From a phage: a stretch of 64,000 bases of DNA. The notes under the pieces were generated by a model. That model was not told where the DNA came from and made no database searches. It was given only the letters and a program-made list of their open reading frames with translations. The position numbers and the translations under genes were made by a program. The number at the start of each line of letters is the position of its first letter. Position 1 is the first letter of the stretch. The stretch lies in the sequence record PZ212788.1; one strand, given 5' to 3'. Positions 11,255 through 62,144 of the stretch are shown here, one piece after another.

Positions 11255-12745
11255 GTGGCTAAGTATGGATTGACAGAGGCTGGTTTCGTTATACCAACCC
11301 TAAATGACCTAATCGTTGAAACTAAGCAAAGCCTGATCCGTGCTTTTGGCGAAAACTTCAACGTACAGAGTAACTCCGTTGCAGATAAGCTGACCACTAT
11401 CTTCAACGAGCGAGAGTATCAACTTATTCTTATGGCAGCATCTGTATACGCATCACAGACGCTGTATGGGGCAGAAGGTATCTACCTAGATGAGCTTCTT
11501 GGAAGACAGGGTATTTACCGAAGAGGCCGTTCTAAATCATCAGGTACCTGCCAGTTGACAATCAACACAACTGTGCCGTACAATATGATTTATGATTCCA
11601 AAACTTATACGCTGGACAGTGGCAACTTTGTTCTTAGCAACGATGTGCAAGTAGCAGGGAATCTTATTGCTCACAGAATAAATGCTCCAGACCTAAGGAT
11701 TGGGAAATACAACTTCCAAATTACCAACCAGACAGATGGAAGTATCAAAACAAAAAGTCTGGTTTTAACAGATAAGTCTCTGGACTCTTCTGATTTGCCA
11801 AGCTTTTACGGAGAGATTAAGCAATTCATTGTCGATAATACAACCCTGTTGAACGACGATTTGATTCAGGTCGATATGTTGACAGGAACGTTGTGGATAG
11901 GGTACAATTCGAATCTTGATCAAGTTGGACTTAATAGTAGAGTAGATTTCAGAGTATCCCCGATTGTAGGGGAAAGAACTATCACCCTGGATGTTATCGC
12001 TAACGAGGCTGGTGAGCTGTCAAGAGAGGCAGAAACCGTGACAACAATGTCACCTACTCCCAGTGGATTTATCAAGCTTACCAACCGAGAAAGATTCAAC
12101 GAGGGCAGGGATGTTGAGAAAGATTCCGAGTATCGCTTAAGAGCTTCCAGCACAAAACAGTTAACATCGAAGGCTACCCGTCCTGCAATCCTTAGCGCTG
12201 TAAGCGAGGTGAAAGGTGTTGAGAAAGTGAGAGTGTTCTCCAACAACACTGATAAAACTGATGCTAAAGGTATACCTCCTTACAAGTTCCAAGTGGTTGT
12301 GTTTGGTGGTGCAACGGAGGACATTTGCCAAGCACTTTACCAAACTATAGCCTGTACGAACAGGACTTATGGTAATATTTTCTACGATGTCACTACATCT
12401 GACGGTCAAACTGAAAGAATTTATTACTCCAAGGCAAATACCTACCGCCTAGATGTAAGAATTACCTATTCCGGCGCTGCGCTTTCCACAACCGAAAAAG
12501 ATGCCATTGTAGAGGCTCTTTTGCAGGTTGTTAACGGACTGGATGTTGCAGATACGTTGTACAATATCCAATTGGTCGGTGCTGCATCCGCTGCTGTGTC
12601 GATAGGTAGATTTAATAGACTGGTAATTCAAGTTAAACCAGTAGGAGCTTCTGATGAAGCTTACACTACAAACGATATTGTTGCGAACATGACCGAGGTG
12701 TTTGACCTCGACGAAAGTAATATAACTTTCCAACAAACTATTTAA
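11255..12745 (+). CDS. Baseplate J-like protein (gp47 / P2 gpJ family)
   Basis: GTG start with RBS GGAGGAG; N-terminal AEGIYLDELLGRQGIYRRGRSKSSGTCQL matches the conserved GEYLDxL...G motif of Baseplate_J proteins. Confidence 0.6.
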   Translation: MAKYGLTEAGFVIPTLNDLIVETKQSLIRAFGENFNVQSNSVADKLTTIFNEREYQLILMAASVYASQTLYGAEGIYLDELLGRQGIYRRGRSKSSGTCQLTINTTVPYNMIYDSKTYTLDSGNFVLSNDVQVAGNLIAHRINAPDLRIGKYNFQITNQTDGSIKTKSLVLTDKSLDSSDLPSFYGEIKQFIVDNTTLLNDDLIQVDMLTGTLWIGYNSNLDQVGLNSRVDFRVSPIVGERTITLDVIANEAGELSREAETVTTMSPTPSGFIKLTNRERFNEGRDVEKDSEYRLRASSTKQLTSKATRPAILSAVSEVKGVEKVRVFSNNTDKTDAKGIPPYKFQVVVFGGATEDICQALYQTIACTNRTYGNIFYDVTTSDGQTERIYYSKANTYRLDVRITYSGAALSTTEKDAIVEALLQVVNGLDVADTLYNIQLVGAASAAVSIGRFNRLVIQVKPVGASDEAYTTNDIVANMTEVFDLDESNITFQQTI

Positions 12746-53271: not shown

Positions 53272-53640
53272 ATGGAACAAATGAACGATCAAGAGTCGGT
53301 TGCGATGAACGAGCAAGAACAACCTCAAGAATTTTTCTTAGGGTTAAGTAAAGATCAAGTGTCTCTTTTGCTAGTGCTTTCTTCTTTCATGGGAAGACTT
53401 CAGGAGCTCACACAACAACCGGAGGCTGAACAATTATTTCAGGCTCTGCGTGAAGAAGAAAAATATCGTCGTTTGGACTATGCCTTAGGTTGGGTAGCTC
53501 AACAACGAGATATGTTGATGGCCCTCTCTGGGACCACAAGTTTTGCAATGGGCCTGTTGGCTCAAGTTCAGGACAAATTAATTCAAGCAGGGTTTGCACA
53601 CACGGCAAACACTAACGAAGAACAAGGAGACAAAGAATGA
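53272..53640 (+). CDS. Hypothetical protein, Gln/Glu-rich N-terminus (122 aa)
   Basis: RBS GGAGA; start overlap ATGA with the next gene. Confidence 0.45.
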   Translation: MEQMNDQESVAMNEQEQPQEFFLGLSKDQVSLLLVLSSFMGRLQELTQQPEAEQLFQALREEEKYRRLDYALGWVAQQRDMLMALSGTTSFAMGLLAQVQDKLIQAGFAHTANTNEEQGDKE

Positions 53641-54908
53641 GCGTTATTCAACAATTCGCTAACCCGATGAATCCGCGTGAAACTGTTTTACTGGCTCACG
53701 GCATGATTAAACGCGTCAGCATCAAGCCTATCAAAGGTGCTGATCCTACAACAGGTATTAAAACCACTGTGTGGCAAGGTAAGAAAATTGAGTCCAGCCA
53801 CACCATCTCTTTACTGATTTCTGAACTGGATTCCTCTGATAACCTACTTCAAGGTGGTGAAGAAGTTTGGATCAGTATGGGCGATAAGCTGCTTAAACCG
53901 GGTCATCAAGACTCTGTCTCTGTTAAAATTGATGACAAGTGGGAAACCGTAACGCCAGGATGGATCGTAAATATCCCTTTGAAGGCAAACGAGCATAACG
54001 GTAAGACCTACTACAAAGGCTCACTGGCTAAGATGGTTAAGCTGGGTGCAGGAGAGGCTCCAGCAGCGACTCAGCAGCAAAAACAGCAACAAGGTGCACA
54101 ATCACAAGGCCAGAAGCAGAAACCTCAGCAGAATGCCAATCAGGACGTTTTACGCATCTATGGTGATGTGACTCAGATTGTTGGCAACGTGGTTACTGTT
54201 AATGACCACAAGATTGGCGAAGGTGCTATGGTTGTAACTGATGAGCAGCTTAAAGACCTGGTGGTAGGTGGTCGTGTTGCAGCCATTGTTGACAAAGACA
54301 CCGGAAACATTATCAGTGGTTTCAAAGCCTATCCTCCTAAGGCAGAGAACGGCACTCAAGGCTCTGGTGGCAAGCGTAAATCCTCTTACGACCCTATCGG
54401 TGTGGAGACGGGACATAGCATCAATGCGTTGCAGATCATCCTGGATCGCGGGTTTAAGGTAGACGACCCACTGGGCGTGGCTAAAACACTGCACGTAGTC
54501 ACCATTGAGCTTAAGAAAGAGTATGCTCAAGCCACCAACCGAACTGAAGATGAAGTAGGTGCCAGTGTCGGTAATGCGGTGTTGAACGCTTGTCGCCGTA
54601 TTGACAAGAAAACGAAAGTTGATGATTTTGCAGTGGCAATTACTGCAGAAGCAAAAGATGTCTTGACTAATCTAGCTGAGCCGTTGTACGATTGGATCAA
54701 GAACGGTGCTGAGTCCACTGACCATCAAGAACCTCAGGCTGCCAAACAGGAAGCAGCTCCACAGCAAAACACTGTAGACGCTCCTCCTGTAAATGATGGG
54801 GAAGATGACCCGATGGATCAGAATCCAGCACAGTATGACTTCTGTGATGACATACCTTTCGCTCCGGTGGGTTTGCAATATGGAAAAAGCAGAATCCACG
54901 CATTGTAA
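53637..54908 (+). CDS. Two-domain protein with Gln-rich linker and acidic SSB-tip-like motif; possible ssDNA-binding protein (423 aa)
   Basis: RBS GGAGA; linker [20 protein letters not shown]; near C-terminus [19 protein letters not shown] resembles the E. coli SSB tail DFDDDIPF; no enzymatic motif. Confidence 0.35.
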
Positions 54909-55503
54909 GAGGTGCATCAAGTGCGGAGAGGTGAAAAACCTCTCCGAGTTCTACAAACACCCAAAGATGTCTGACGGTCATCTTAATAAGTGCAAAGAGT
55001 GTTGCAAGAAGGCCAGCAGGGAGGCTGACAGGTTTTCCCACGACTCTTCAGAAAAAGGTGTAATACGCGTGCTGTACAAGGCTCAAAAGTGCAACAGCAA
55101 GCAAAGAGGCCACCCTCCTCCGACTTACACCAAAAAAGAGTTTAAGGAGTGGCTATACCTGAACGGTTACAAAGAGTTGTATGATCAGTGGGTAGCCAGC
55201 GGATACGACAAAAGGAAAAAGCCTTCTTGTGACAGGATAGATGATTTCAAAGGGTACTCTTTTGATAATATCCGTTTAACGACTTGGGGAGAAAATAAAG
55301 ACAAGCAGACGGAGGATATTCTGTTGCATAGAAGCACCAGCGGTAGACGGTGTAAAAATGTAAGAAGGCTGGACATGAATGGAAACGTTCTTAAAGAATG
55401 GGTATCCCACAATTCTTGTAGAAGAGAAACCGGAATATGTGTTGATTACTACATTCATGAAAAAATTCCAGCCCCCGATGGATACCTCTATGAATACTTT
55501 TAG
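54880..55503 (+). CDS. Zinc-finger / HNH-like endonuclease-like protein (207 aa)
   Basis: ATG 54880 overlaps the upstream gene by 29 nt; [10 protein letters not shown]...CKECCKK zinc finger; [25 protein letters not shown] resembles the HNH DHID...N motif with His replaced by Arg. Confidence 0.4.
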
Positions 55504-58529: not shown

Positions 58530-58719
58530 GCTTAAATCTGCATGGAACATCGCTGTGGGGGACGAGATCCGTATCCCAGGTGGAAAGACCATTATGAAAA
58601 TATCTCGTATCGAGTACGAAGGTGATCGTGTATTTCATATCTTTGCAGAAGATGGTCGAGAGATTTATATACAGGCAGGATCTCACATCTATATTCGTAA
58701 GAAAGAGGAGGACAAATGA
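58522..58719 (+). CDS. Small hypothetical protein (65 aa)
   Basis: ATG 58522 with RBS AAGGAAGG, overlapping upstream stop; preferred over ORF-track 58456. Confidence 0.4.
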   Translation: MFKLKSAWNIAVGDEIRIPGGKTIMKISRIEYEGDRVFHIFAEDGREIYIQAGSHIYIRKKEEDK

Positions 58720-59045
58720 CAGAGATCATCATTTCAACTGCAGGGTATGTATTCCTGACAATCATTGCACTGGCTATTTTGGTGACAGTGTATGGGTTTG
58801 TTATCCTTCCTATCCTTGAGACATTTAGTTTGTGTCGGTGTTGGAGAAAAGCTTACGGTCCACAACCATGGAAGGACTGGCCCCACCTGGTGCGCTTAGC
58901 GTTCTCTTATGCTTACGATCACTCCAGTAGTGCATGCATAACCGGATACCACGCCCACAACTGGAGCTGGGAAGGGTTGAGGAAATGGAATGTTACAAAG
59001 ACCATACCTCTGCGCATGTACAAACCTAAAAACAAAGACAACTGA
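58716..59045 (+). CDS. Small membrane protein (109 aa)
   Basis: RBS GAGGAGG; N-terminal hydrophobic segment TAGYVFLTIIALAILVTVYGFVILPIL. Confidence 0.45.
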   Translation: MTEIIISTAGYVFLTIIALAILVTVYGFVILPILETFSLCRCWRKAYGPQPWKDWPHLVRLAFSYAYDHSSSACITGYHAHNWSWEGLRKWNVTKTIPLRMYKPKNKDN

Positions 59046-59074
59046 TACTTGAAAATTCCTGGCATATCAAGTAT
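59046..59074. repeat. Inverted repeat at the start of the noncoding region
   Basis: ATACTTGA ... TCAAGTAT arms separated by 13 nt, immediately after the last small gene. Confidence 0.4.
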
Positions 59075-59086
59075 AAGGGGGATTTC

Positions 59087-59181
59087 TAAAATGGATTTCC
59101 TCCTTTTGATATTTCACCGGGCTGGATATTTTAAAATTCTTAGAAAATCAGAAAATGGATCGAAAACTAAAATGGATTTTT
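59087..59181. repeat. Cluster of three AAAATGGAT(T/C) motif copies
   Basis: TAAAATGGATTT at 59087, GAAAATGGATCG at 59151, TAAAATGGATTTTT at 59168; a fourth copy at 59521. Confidence 0.5.
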
Positions 59182-59355
59182 CAGAGTAGGCGCGACAAGC
59201 TGAATAACTCATCCTATCGTTTGCACCATATTCCAGGCCACCATTATAGATTTCCCACACATGCTAACCTCTCTCTACTAGAACTTCCTCCACTTACCCT
59301 TGACCTTCTATGGTAACAATCTAACCGCTATCTTGAAGTTGCGGTGCAGCTTTCC

Positions 59356-59535
59356 AGGTACTCGATCTACTTTTCATTTCAGGGCTTGGATTTTCTGAAA
59401 ATTTTTCTCGATAAATTTCTCAGTACTCGATCTGTTTTTCGTTTTCTGAATCGGATTTTCTGGAAATCGTTCCGGCTCTCAACCTGAAATTTTTGGGGAC
59501 GAAATCGATTTTTCGTTTTCAGAAATGGATTTTTA
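59356..59535. repeat. Imperfect tandem direct repeats, about 65-bp period
   Basis: AGGTACTCGATCTACTTTTCATTTC (59356) versus CAGTACTCGATCTGTTTTTCGTTTTC (59421); GGATTTTCTGAAAAT (59388) versus GGATTTTCTGGAAAT (59453); partial third unit 59491-59513. Confidence 0.6.
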
Positions 59536-59649
59536 AAATTTCTATATGGGAATATTTTAGTGGATACTATTTTATAGTAAATTGTTACGGAGGGTAATTA
59601 GCGTGCTAATTAAATTTATTAAATGCGAGGAGTTCTCATTTAGAATTTT

Positions 59650-59666
59650 GAATGATAATCATTCTC
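59650..59666. promoter_or_regulatory. Fur-box-like motif, copy 1
   Basis: GAATGATAATCATTCTC matches the 3' two-thirds of the Fur consensus GATAATGATAATCATTATC at most positions. Confidence 0.3.
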
Positions 59667-59780
59667 GTTTGCAGAATAACGGGCAGGCCCGGTGATTGTC
59701 TCCCGGCCCCTGTTGCCCCGGCTTGTTATTATAGTATCACACAGGACAAAGAAAGCAAGGATTTTTTGCATAAATTTTTA

Positions 59781-59802
59781 AATGATAATGATAACCGTTC
59801 TC
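59781..59802. promoter_or_regulatory. Fur-box-like motif, copy 2
   Basis: AATGATAATGATAACCGTTCTC contains GATAATGATAACCGTTCTC, about 16 of 19 matches to the Fur consensus. Confidence 0.3.
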
Positions 59803-60207
59803 ATTTTATGCAGCGCCCATCCCCAGTGGTTGTCTCCCCCGTCACCGGTGCCTGCCGTCCTTTCGATAGGTATATTGTGCCACCTGGCGGGGCCGCTGTC
59901 AACACCTTTCAAAAAAAAAAAATTATAACCAGGTGCGCCCACTGCCAGGACCTGGCGGGGGAGAGTGAAAGCTTGCAAACCTGGTAGGGCTATGCTATAG
60001 GGTAGGCAACAACTGGAGAGGAGGTACAAAAATGAAAGGTAATATAATCCCCTGGAAAATGTAGCGACTAATGACGCTGAGGCTATCGCCATGGTTGAAA
60101 AGGCTATGGCGGGAGCGTTGGAACATAAAGAAGAGTACGAAAAAATGGTGGTTAACCTGGCGGGGGCGGCAGGTGGATTCTATCATAAAAATAATTTAAA
60201 ATAGTCG

Positions 60208-60235
60208 TTGACAACAAGGTTAATCATGGTATTAT
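60208..60235 (+). promoter_or_regulatory. Sigma70-type promoter
   Basis: -35 TTGACA, 16-nt spacer, -10 TATTAT; preceded by AAAATAGTCG. Confidence 0.6.
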
Positions 60236-60285
60236 TACCCTACAAGGTGAACAACACCGCACTAACCAGTAAAGAGGATAAATTT

Positions 60286-60483
60286 ATGAACGCATACGGG
60301 ATCAAAGTACGTCGCAACACTCGCCAGGTGGTCACCAATCAAGTGATTTGCCGGGTGGATGTAACCATCAACAACGGGCAAGGCCTTTATAAATTTCGTC
60401 GCGGTCATAGCTATACCCTGCAACAGCTTAATCGTTGCGCCCTGACAAAAGGTCAGATCAACCACTGGTTTAATAAAAAATAA
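60286..60483 (+). CDS. Small basic protein (65 aa)
   Basis: ATG 60286 with RBS AAGAGGA preferred over ORF-track 60208, which coincides with the -35 hexamer. Confidence 0.45.
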   Translation: MNAYGIKVRRNTRQVVTNQVICRVDVTINNGQGLYKFRRGHSYTLQQLNRCALTKGQINHWFNKK

Positions 60484-61424: not shown

Positions 61425-61435
61425 GATTATTTTTA

Positions 61436-61472
61436 GATGGCCTTGACTTCAGGGCCATCAATAAAGTAAACT
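61436..61472 (+). promoter_or_regulatory. Repeated palindrome-promoter element, copy 1
   Basis: GATGGCC-TTGACTTCAG-GGCCATC inverted repeat bracketing the -35 TTGACT, then -10-like TAAACT; 45-bp core is near-identical to the element at 62067. Confidence 0.55.
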
Positions 61473-61504
61473 AATCCCAGTTAAGCGAAAAAGGAGGCTT
61501 GAAG

Positions 61505-62055: not shown

Positions 62056-62066
62056 GCTTATTTTTA

Positions 62067-62103
62067 GATGGCCTTGACACCAGGGCCATCAATAAAGTAA
62101 ACT
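62067..62103 (+). promoter_or_regulatory. Repeated palindrome-promoter element, copy 2
   Basis: GATGGCC-TTGACACCAG-GGCCATC inverted repeat bracketing the -35 TTGACA, then TAAACT. Confidence 0.55.
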
Positions 62104-62144
62104 TTATACTGTTAACACTGAACTAATGCATAGGAGTTAAAACC

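Follow-up and report, generated by a model that had tools for sequence, protein, structure and literature searches.

Why should a lytic coliphage keep about 600 bp of repeat-rich DNA in which no credible gene can be recognized? The stretch in question, positions 59046–59640 of a 64,000-nucleotide piece of the phage record PZ212788.1 (this piece is the window, to which coordinates refer unless another genome is named), lies in a Vequintavirus (rV5-like coliphage) with a genome of about 137 kb. A first-pass annotation had proposed for it a replication origin with iterons, a pac/cos region or the junction of the physical genome ends. We find that it makes up the left two-thirds of a larger noncoding locus (about 59046–59930) that is composite in structure, is kept throughout the genus and has two jobs. 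At its left edge, 59076–59114 is, judged from its predicted structure and covariation, a Rho-independent terminator, where transcription coming from the upstream array of replication and small genes ends. Further right, a zone of about 600 bp, made up of the repeat units, an AT-rich part and a part with Fur-box-like and GC-rich elements that reaches to a leftward promoter, is needed in cis or as RNA. The best-supported reading of the locus, which we put forward tentatively and would stop short of calling probable, is a transcription-activated replication origin shielded by the terminator.

Conservation, coding potential and insertion tolerance of the locus

The locus is found throughout the genus. 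A megablast search with 58700–60300 matched 122 phage records, the best being O157 typing phage 14 (97.7% identity) and EdH4. Of the 117 records that match 59046–59640, 116 contain the whole stretch (82–99.8% identity, usually 595 nt against 595 nt); it corresponds to EdH4 11619–12213 at 99.8% identity. The gene-free stretch of about 1 kb that includes it is co-linear in 117 phage records, which bears out the conserved position that the first-pass annotation had named as a check. Neither the flanking protein nor the DNA of the locus was found outside the genus (117 records), to which IMG/VR added two relatives, and plasmids and E. coli chromosomes showed no similarity to the locus, one mislabelled phage record excepted. 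A 137.6-kb E. coli ‘plasmid’ in PLSDB (CP057073.1) is by sequence a Vequintavirus genome, as are 16 records named ‘Campylobacter phage’ (GenBank MG0656xx); all are probably mislabelled or co-assembled.

In the orientation of the window, and following the annotation of relatives, tail-fibre genes are followed by a short minus-strand block and then by a long plus-strand array with rIIA/B, helicases, methylases, primase-helicase, DNA polymerase and about 25 small genes. The gene-free stretch comes next, and after it about 30 small genes up to the genome end, each with a strong sigma-70 promoter and a terminator. The locus lies 7–8 kb downstream of the primase-helicase and polymerase genes, at 8–9% of the genome counted from the left end. 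The genes that flank it are all on the plus strand and belong to genus-confined families of unknown function. Its placement after the gene 58716–59045 and before an 11/12 sigma-70 promoter at 60208 is as first described, and it is AT-rich as claimed, with about 35% G+C against 44% for the window.

That the stretch holds no credible open reading frame (ORF) was supported by a codon-position test on both strands, based, like the anatomy and all diversity values below, on pairwise diversity over 18 aligned relatives. Flanking genes, used as controls, show the expected third-position excess (0.079/0.048/0.188 and 0.023/0.033/0.077 for codon positions 1/2/3). The candidate ORFs of the locus do not (for example 0.229/0.251/0.192 and 0.077/0.068/0.092), and the ORF at 59493–59597 has an in-frame stop in one relative (L006). 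A coding reading of all ORFs at the locus is therefore ruled out for want of codon-position bias, and no minus-strand ORF there has a coding signature. No tRNA or tmRNA genes were found at the locus, and Rfam 15, searched at a permissive threshold, gave chance-level matches only (best 13–20 bits against thresholds of 95–126 bits).

Small ORFs are nonetheless annotated here in several GenBank records, which disagree among themselves. These annotations, and a repeat-rich, gene-poor character like that of termini, would suit a physical genome end, a cos/pac junction, or decayed or unrecognised small genes without any cis function. All of these are very improbable: the ORFs lack codon bias and are interrupted in relatives, conservation is far above neutral, and the ends lie 11.6 kb away. 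Terminal redundancy is 458 bp in EdH4 and HdK5 (PMC6563267), and in LL12 the repeat measures 459 bp and is located between convergent transcripts (PMC6658697). The virion end is where the EdH4 record begins, since the opening 60 nt are found again 459 nt before the record closes. Counted from the end of the window, the terminus is about 7.3 kb further on. Since the locus is 11.6 kb inside EdH4, the suggested junction of ends is refuted, and a pac/cos region is unlikely in a phage with short fixed terminal repeats whose locus is not at the ends. No part of 59046–59640 recurs in the terminal 1.5 kb.

A transposon map of a relative bears directly on whether the locus is needed. Bas54, which is phage MaxBurger, was mapped with Himar1 by HIDEN-SEQ (bioRxiv 10.1101/2025.11.20.689424). 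From the gene-level Extended Data Table 8 of that study, with coordinates mapped by alignment (90.6% identity), the hits around the locus are as follows.

bas54_0099: 18 of 21 TA sites hit; Non-essential
bas54_0100 (window 59341–59487): 1 of 3 TA sites hit, mean reads 5; not classified (NA)
bas54_0101 (window 59493–59597): 0 of 11 TA sites hit, mean reads 0; Essential
bas54_0102 (window 59652–59928): 5 of 15 TA sites hit, mean reads 12.7; Strong fitness defect
bas54_0103: 12 of 14 TA sites hit; Intermediate
bas54_0104 to bas54_0109: 91–100% of TA sites hit; Non-essential

Neighbouring Bas54 genes have mean reads of 150–800 (bioRxiv 10.1101/2025.11.20.689424). The ORFs bas54_0100 to bas54_0102 are exactly the stretches found here to be noncoding. 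Polarity is excluded because the 15 surrounding genes are dispensable, and an artefact of a silent region is unlikely because the transposon has its own promoter (BBa_J23110). What the map scores as two essential or strongly deleterious ‘hypothetical proteins’ are not genes but a conserved noncoding element, and the reading of this first transposon map of an rV5-like phage changes accordingly. The one gap to which the authors of the map draw attention is an intergenic region of about 2 kb, free of insertions, that separates convergent genes (bioRxiv 10.1101/2025.11.20.689424). This is the terminus region and, as the only other insertion-free noncoding region, the natural packaging site.

The features of the locus, with their diversity among the relatives, are these.

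59341–59928, no strand: the zone nearly free of insertions, reaching past the right edge of 59046–59640
59046–59075, no strand: variable linker after the stop codon of the gene 58716–59045, holding an inverted repeat (diversity 0.289 over 59046–59078)
59076–59114, plus strand: predicted Rho-independent terminator of the upstream array, hairpin 59076–59105 then UUUUGAUAUUU
59079–59117: block A (0.083)
59126–59183, no strand: block B, invariant, unstructured and A-rich, with two copies of AAAATGGAT and an inverted GATTTTCT (0.023)
59184–59358, plus strand: spacer of neutral substitution rate and fixed length, C-rich and G-poor (0.285)
59359–59556, plus strand: block C, three degenerate direct repeats, T-rich (43% T)
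from about 59348/59359 to 59412, plus strand: block C unit 1 (0.103)
59413–59486, plus strand: block C unit 2 (0.039), then a short linker (0.154)
59487–59556, plus strand: block C unit 3 (0.025)
59557–59640, no strand: AT-rich stretch, with unit 3 the least stable 160 bp of the locus, 20–33% G+C over 59481–59640 (0.183 over 59557–59592, 0.057 over 59593–59640)
59641–59900: sequence to the right of 59640 (0.033)
59648–59666, minus strand: Fur-box-like site 1, GAGAATGATTATCATT, a perfect 7-1-7 palindrome (GAATGAT-A-ATCATTC), 15/19 to GATAATGATAATCATTATC, invariant
59784–59802, minus strand: Fur-box-like site 2, GAGAACGGTTATCATT, 16/19 to GATAATGATAATCATTATC, 136 nt from site 1
about 59680–59720 and 59822–59858, minus strand: two GC-rich elements with the core GGAGACAAYCAC, whose outer arms form a long-range inverted repeat (family D8)
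59902–59874, minus strand: predicted leftward sigma-70 promoter, TTGACA-17-CACAAT with TG and an upstream A/T tract (10/12 match)

Judged by the third codon positions of the upstream gene (0.188; neutral range 0.19–0.29), the spacer and the linkers drift neutrally. Blocks B and C and 59641–59900 are 6–10 times more constrained than synonymous sites, and on this comparison are under strong purifying selection without coding.

Terminator, spacer and repeats

The hairpin that would end the upstream transcription (59076–59105; ΔG −14.9 kcal/mol, z −2.4) is upheld by covariation. Among 11 distinct relatives, 99.2% of its cells are paired, against 52–72% in controls with slid partners, three pairs have changed on both sides (GC to AU), and none of 500 shuffles matches the covariation score. 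Even the most divergent relative retains an 8-bp terminator stem of different sequence, and the G-U pairs place the structure on the plus-strand RNA. As in other enterobacterial and phage Rho-independent terminators, a G+C-rich stem with covariation precedes a U tract, and there is a stop codon 30 nt upstream; the element differs from typical ones in its larger loop region, of 15 nt with an inner 4-bp stem, and a simple scanner missed it.

The inverted repeat that the first-pass annotation placed at 59046–59074 exists, with arms at 59042–59052 and 59067–59077 (11 nt, 91% complementary). It is lineage-specific and probably due to chance, because it sits in the most variable 30 bp or so (0.289) and is lost in an alternative allele. 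The claim of four motif copies stands for three: AAAATGGAT is exact at 59088, 59152 and 59169, and the fourth, at 59522, is the one-off copy GAAATGGATT. The motif is peculiar to the locus, AAATGGATTT occurring three times in the whole 136-kb EdH4 genome, always here and on one strand. The first copy of AAAATGGATTT forms the loop and 3′ arm of the terminator hairpin.

Block B holds the other two exact copies. It is 100% conserved over 59140–59179 in 18 sequences, yet on either strand its predicted fold is less stable than that of shuffled sequence (z +1.0 and +1.5). Being invariant and unstructured, it would be recognized at the level of DNA or single strands, and is a candidate for protein binding. 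Structured RNA is ruled out both for block B and for units 1–2 (z 0 to +1.5).

The spacer behaves in the opposite way, drifting in sequence while its length (174–177) and its C/G ratio (1.73–2.65) are kept in all 18 relatives. Its highest 150-nt window has a C/G ratio of 2.72, the maximum for the 64 kb (99.97th percentile). Read rightward, it has the composition of a Rho loading (rut) site, C-rich and G-poor over at least 80 nt, although the upstream terminator would already halt most rightward transcripts; read leftward, it would give a G-rich transcript.

The tandem units of about 65 bp that had been described are indeed present in block C, as three degenerate direct repeats of 65–74 bp. Copies start at 59348, 59413 and 59487 (spacing 65 and 74 nt) and are 70–74% alike over 47 nt. 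They were recovered by self-BLAST (69% over 111 nt, E 1e-5), while in Tandem Repeats Finder the 65-bp units fell below threshold and went undetected. Unit 3 has a predicted hairpin (59489–59526, then GGAUUUUUAAAAUUU; ΔG −15.9, z −2.3) with a 16-bp stem and a U-rich tail, and two of three substitutions in the stem (G59498A, A59521G) keep plus-strand pairing. AA/TT periodicity of 10.75–11 bp reaches the 99th percentile in block C, indicating phased A/T tracts. A scan of blocks A–C for sigma-70 promoters gave weak minus-strand matches only, at 59581 and 59482, on which we do not build. Another sequence, TCGATAAATT, which we take to be an H-NS high-affinity nucleation motif, occurs once per genome, at 59408–59417 inside repeat unit 1/2; it was picked post hoc.

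These elements raise the alternative that the locus is a pure transcription boundary, in which an intrinsic and a Rho-dependent terminator (the rut-like spacer with T-rich pause or hairpin units) and an insulator keep upstream read-through out of the strongly promoted early-gene cluster. The terminator covariation speaks for it, as do the highest C/G ratio of the window, kept in all relatives despite drift, the second hairpin with its U-rich tail at 59489–59540, and the plus-strand direction of all flanking genes. We consider it quite unlikely all the same, since termination does not call for near-invariance over 400 bp or more and a boundary should tolerate insertions where the downstream genes are all dispensable; it would also leave the inward conserved promoter and the Fur-like boxes unexplained.

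The right flank and its link to the genome ends

To the right of 59640, a sequence of about 135 bp occurs twice (families D5 and D8), each time with a Fur-box-like site and a GC-rich element; beyond lies the predicted leftward promoter (59902–59874). In 18 relatives its −35 element is invariant and its spacer length fixed, and its −10 element varies only at position 3, the least important one (CACAAT, CAAAAT, CATAAT). It opposes all surrounding genes and points into the insertion-poor zone, and no leftward ORF follows it.

A conserved promoter without an ORF behind it is also what an essential leftward noncoding RNA would have, whether acting in trans or as an antisense regulator of neighbouring early genes. 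Such an RNA might be structured and about 190 nt long, ending at the GC hairpin near 59675, or about 800 nt long; the repeats would then be transcript and not DNA site. The insertion-poor zone begins at the promoter and extends leftward, as this alternative predicts. Over 59636–59910 the predicted leftward RNA is more stably folded than shuffled sequence (z −2.3), while the plus strand is not (z −0.8), and 10 of 13 variable pairs keep their pairing through G-U on the minus strand, against two of seven on the plus strand. Those 10 changes are, however, one-sided and wobble-preserving, the other three are breaks, and no pair is compensated on both sides; one arm of the long-range stem has a CC to GG change. 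Moreover, there is neither an Rfam match nor a clear terminator, and blocks B and C, the most conserved and least insertion-tolerant sequence, would give an unstructured minus-strand RNA (z about 0 to +1.5). On balance we regard an essential RNA as unlikely.

Both predicted Fur-box-like sites match the Fur-box consensus GATAATGATAATCATTATC closely, and only these two loci of the window reach 15/19, where 0.36 are expected. A shared motif, GAGAAYNNNTATCATT, forms an invariant pair, 136 nt apart in all 18 relatives. In the whole EdH4 genome (L003) it occurs only at the locus and twice per 459-bp terminal repeat (129–144 and 147–162), in one orientation throughout; the motif was also noted in L025 (9070–9103), and in an IMG/VR relative the terminal-repeat motif pair lies as far off as in EdH4. 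This recurrence inside the terminal repeat alone is the sole remaining link to a pac/cos function. In noncoding DNA of unrelated phage contigs from IMG/VR, TGAGAAT(C/G)ATTATCATT is present in two to five copies (L020 4494–4637, L022 347–490, L023 2652–2803). Given such near-identical arrays, the boxes at the locus resemble Fur boxes of a generic kind, and, as far as these contigs go, Fur-box arrays may be a recurrent phage feature. The GC-rich element also has a copy near the end: a third one lies inverted at EdH4 2205–2262, 2.2 kb from the genome end, as a compact hairpin (z −4.1).

The motif shared in the same orientation with the terminal repeat alone invites the idea of a terminus-linked cis site, serving either as an accessory to packaging and concatemer processing or as a T5-like DNA-entry pause that bounds a first-entering segment of 11–12 kb with host-takeover genes. 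The locus lies at 8–9% of the genome and bounds about 30 small genes with their own strong sigma-70 promoters. The T5 injection stop signal (Repeat Region 3 in the left terminal repeat) is likewise an untranslated region of about 1.2 kb with repeats and palindromes, better conserved than the neighbouring ORFs, at about 8% of its genome (7.9%), on the inner edge of a group of small host-takeover genes (bioRxiv 10.1101/866236). Sensitivity to daunorubicin is, in addition, common to Vequintaviruses and T5-like phages (PMC13250531). Of the properties of the stop signal, however, only the position and the conserved, repeat-rich, untranslated character recur here: the terminal repeat is only 459 bp, the locus lies outside it and outside any long terminal repeat, and it has no DnaA boxes. 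No homologues of T5 A1/A2 were found in the terminal segment; the 10 largest of its proteins gave matches to families of unknown function only. The genus has no reported case of two-step DNA transfer, and no other sequence is common to the locus and the terminal noncoding DNA. A terminus-linked site is, in our estimate, improbable. More doubtful still is a single system that joins the internal locus to the terminal repeats, both in insertion-intolerant noncoding regions, with one protein (host Fur in an architectural role, or a phage protein with a Fur-like site) on the Fur-box-like sites. By the same slim chance, that protein would couple the internal site to the ends in replication initiation, concatemer processing or T5-like staged entry.

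A candidate replication origin

For the tentative reading as a transcription-activated origin, the following course of events can be proposed. The host-type promoter at 59902–59874 would fire leftward into the two GC-rich elements, which are G-rich in the RNA. Transcription would then enter the T-rich units and the most AT-rich, intrinsically bent 160–200 bp (unit 3 and 59557–59640), where the transcript or the opened duplex might let the T7-like primase-helicase and PolA polymerase start. The terminator, perhaps together with the C-rich, rut-like spacer, would shield the site from rightward read-through, and block B and the repeat units would serve as binding sites for some phage or host factor. 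An origin fits best because the locus combines an AT-rich, bent core with locus-unique motifs and a conserved, gene-less, inward promoter, and because it lies downstream of the replication genes of a phage with a T7-type replisome, whose other insertion-free region can be assigned to packaging. Few noncoding functions away from the termini are essential in a lytic phage. Of the functions first suggested, an origin is thus the one best supported (by the insertion gap, the constraint, the AT-rich phased tracts and the gene-less promoter), while its iterons did not stand up.

The nearest parallel is T7, whose primary origin consists of the promoters phi1.1A and phi1.1B followed by an AT-rich region, is dispensable, and has the related phiOL and phiOR near the genome ends. 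The present phage likewise has short direct terminal repeats, a gp4-type primase-helicase and a PolA polymerase, an internal noncoding site some 8–15% from one end with promoter(s) directed into an AT-rich stretch, and a sequence element common to the internal site and the terminal region. In contrast to T7, the promoter is of the host sigma-70 type and the phage is without its own RNA polymerase; the locus is much larger, with 65–74 bp repeats, a fixed-length spacer and Fur-box-like sites but no sequence similarity; and where the primary origin of T7 is dispensable, the zone here tolerates almost no insertions. T4 oriF and oriG and the R-loop origins of the ColE1 type also have a promoter upstream of an easily unwound region, and the predicted transcript here would be G-rich near its 5′ part, favouring persistent RNA-DNA hybrids. 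The T4 origins are redundant, however, and in the present locus the gene-less promoter lies 230–390 nt from the AT-rich region.

Iteron origins (lambda ori, P1 oriR, theta plasmids) share with the locus direct repeats in one orientation by an AT-rich stretch that could unwind (59481–59640), with phased A/T tracts that suggest bending. They differ in having at least three regular, helically phased sites of 17–22 bp, whereas the motif copies here are spaced by 64, 17, about 215, 65 and 74 nt, and the repeats, irregular in size and spacing, are long and have diverged; DnaA boxes and an adjoining initiator gene are lacking, and the regular 16-bp array of this genome lies elsewhere. The likeness of GATCTGTTTTTCG to the oriC 13-mer was set aside, being partial (nine of 11 positions), with the exact pattern occurring once in the genome, elsewhere. 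Overall, the element is without similarity to known origins.

Several points weigh against an origin. The repeats are not classical iterons, being 65–74 bp long, about 70% alike and irregularly spaced; the DnaA box TTWTNCACA is absent from the locus, and no initiator gene was identified, the flanking genes being without a known family. The transposon result comes from gene-level preprint tables for a 91%-identical relative, and since its hits are known for 59341–59928, the left half (59047–59340) may be dispensable. An essential leftward RNA would give an identical insertion pattern, and the support for an origin, drawn from sequence and insertion tolerance, is indirect. Finally, a different site could be the origin instead. 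Just inside the left terminal repeat of EdH4, within the other insertion-free region, 495–581 holds five iteron-like direct repeats, (T/G)TT(T/C)ACA(C/T), of which four are at exact 16-bp spacing and one is a consensus DnaA box. In the literature on the genus we found no description of the locus, no origin mapping, marker-frequency or start-site data or transcriptome, and no host-factor hit (fur, rho, hns, dnaA). In rV5, skew analysis found no origin, only strand-switch signals (PMC3606486).

The neighbourhood of the locus yielded some further observations. The Bas54 orthologue of a 423-aa gene (53637–54908; phrog_4477, function unknown) is essential (bioRxiv 10.1101/2025.11.20.689424). Its protein was considered as an initiator and abandoned, with no Pfam or PDB match and a single-sequence AlphaFold pLDDT (predicted local distance difference test) of 36. 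An HNH/endonuclease VII-like gene (54793–55503; phrog_1035) follows it and, from the gene spacing, is apparently absent at the corresponding position of RudolfGeigy. To the right, the 58-aa gene of relatives at 60032–60204 (bas54_0103) has a premature stop at 60063–60065 in this phage, leaving open only the C-terminal 37 codons, which still show codon-position bias. Identity to EdH4 is 99.1% to the left and 95.3% to the right of 59916–59949, with indels concentrated in 59960–60030; the drop falls at a length-variable poly-A tract (59910–59922), which suggests a recombination breakpoint. At 61427–61484 and 62058–62115 there are near-identical intergenic cassettes (TTATTTTTAGATGGCCTTGAC..CAGGGCCATCAATAAAGTAAACT), each with a hairpin and a promoter-like site, that recur between early genes.

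Few coliphages are isolated as commonly as those of the rV5 type, which also serve in typing sets and therapeutic cocktails; to our knowledge, no origin, regulatory RNA or cis-acting site besides the terminal repeat has been described for them. The question of where and how they start replication is now narrowed to a defined 600-bp target. If the origin reading is true, the locus joins the transcription-activated kind. For phage engineers the region is one to avoid, or one to use should an origin be confirmed. The part that could prove unusual is the link between the Fur-box-like sites, the locus and the genome ends, which, if true, would give a host regulator that senses iron, or a mimic of the site it binds, a part in the core DNA transactions of a lytic phage.

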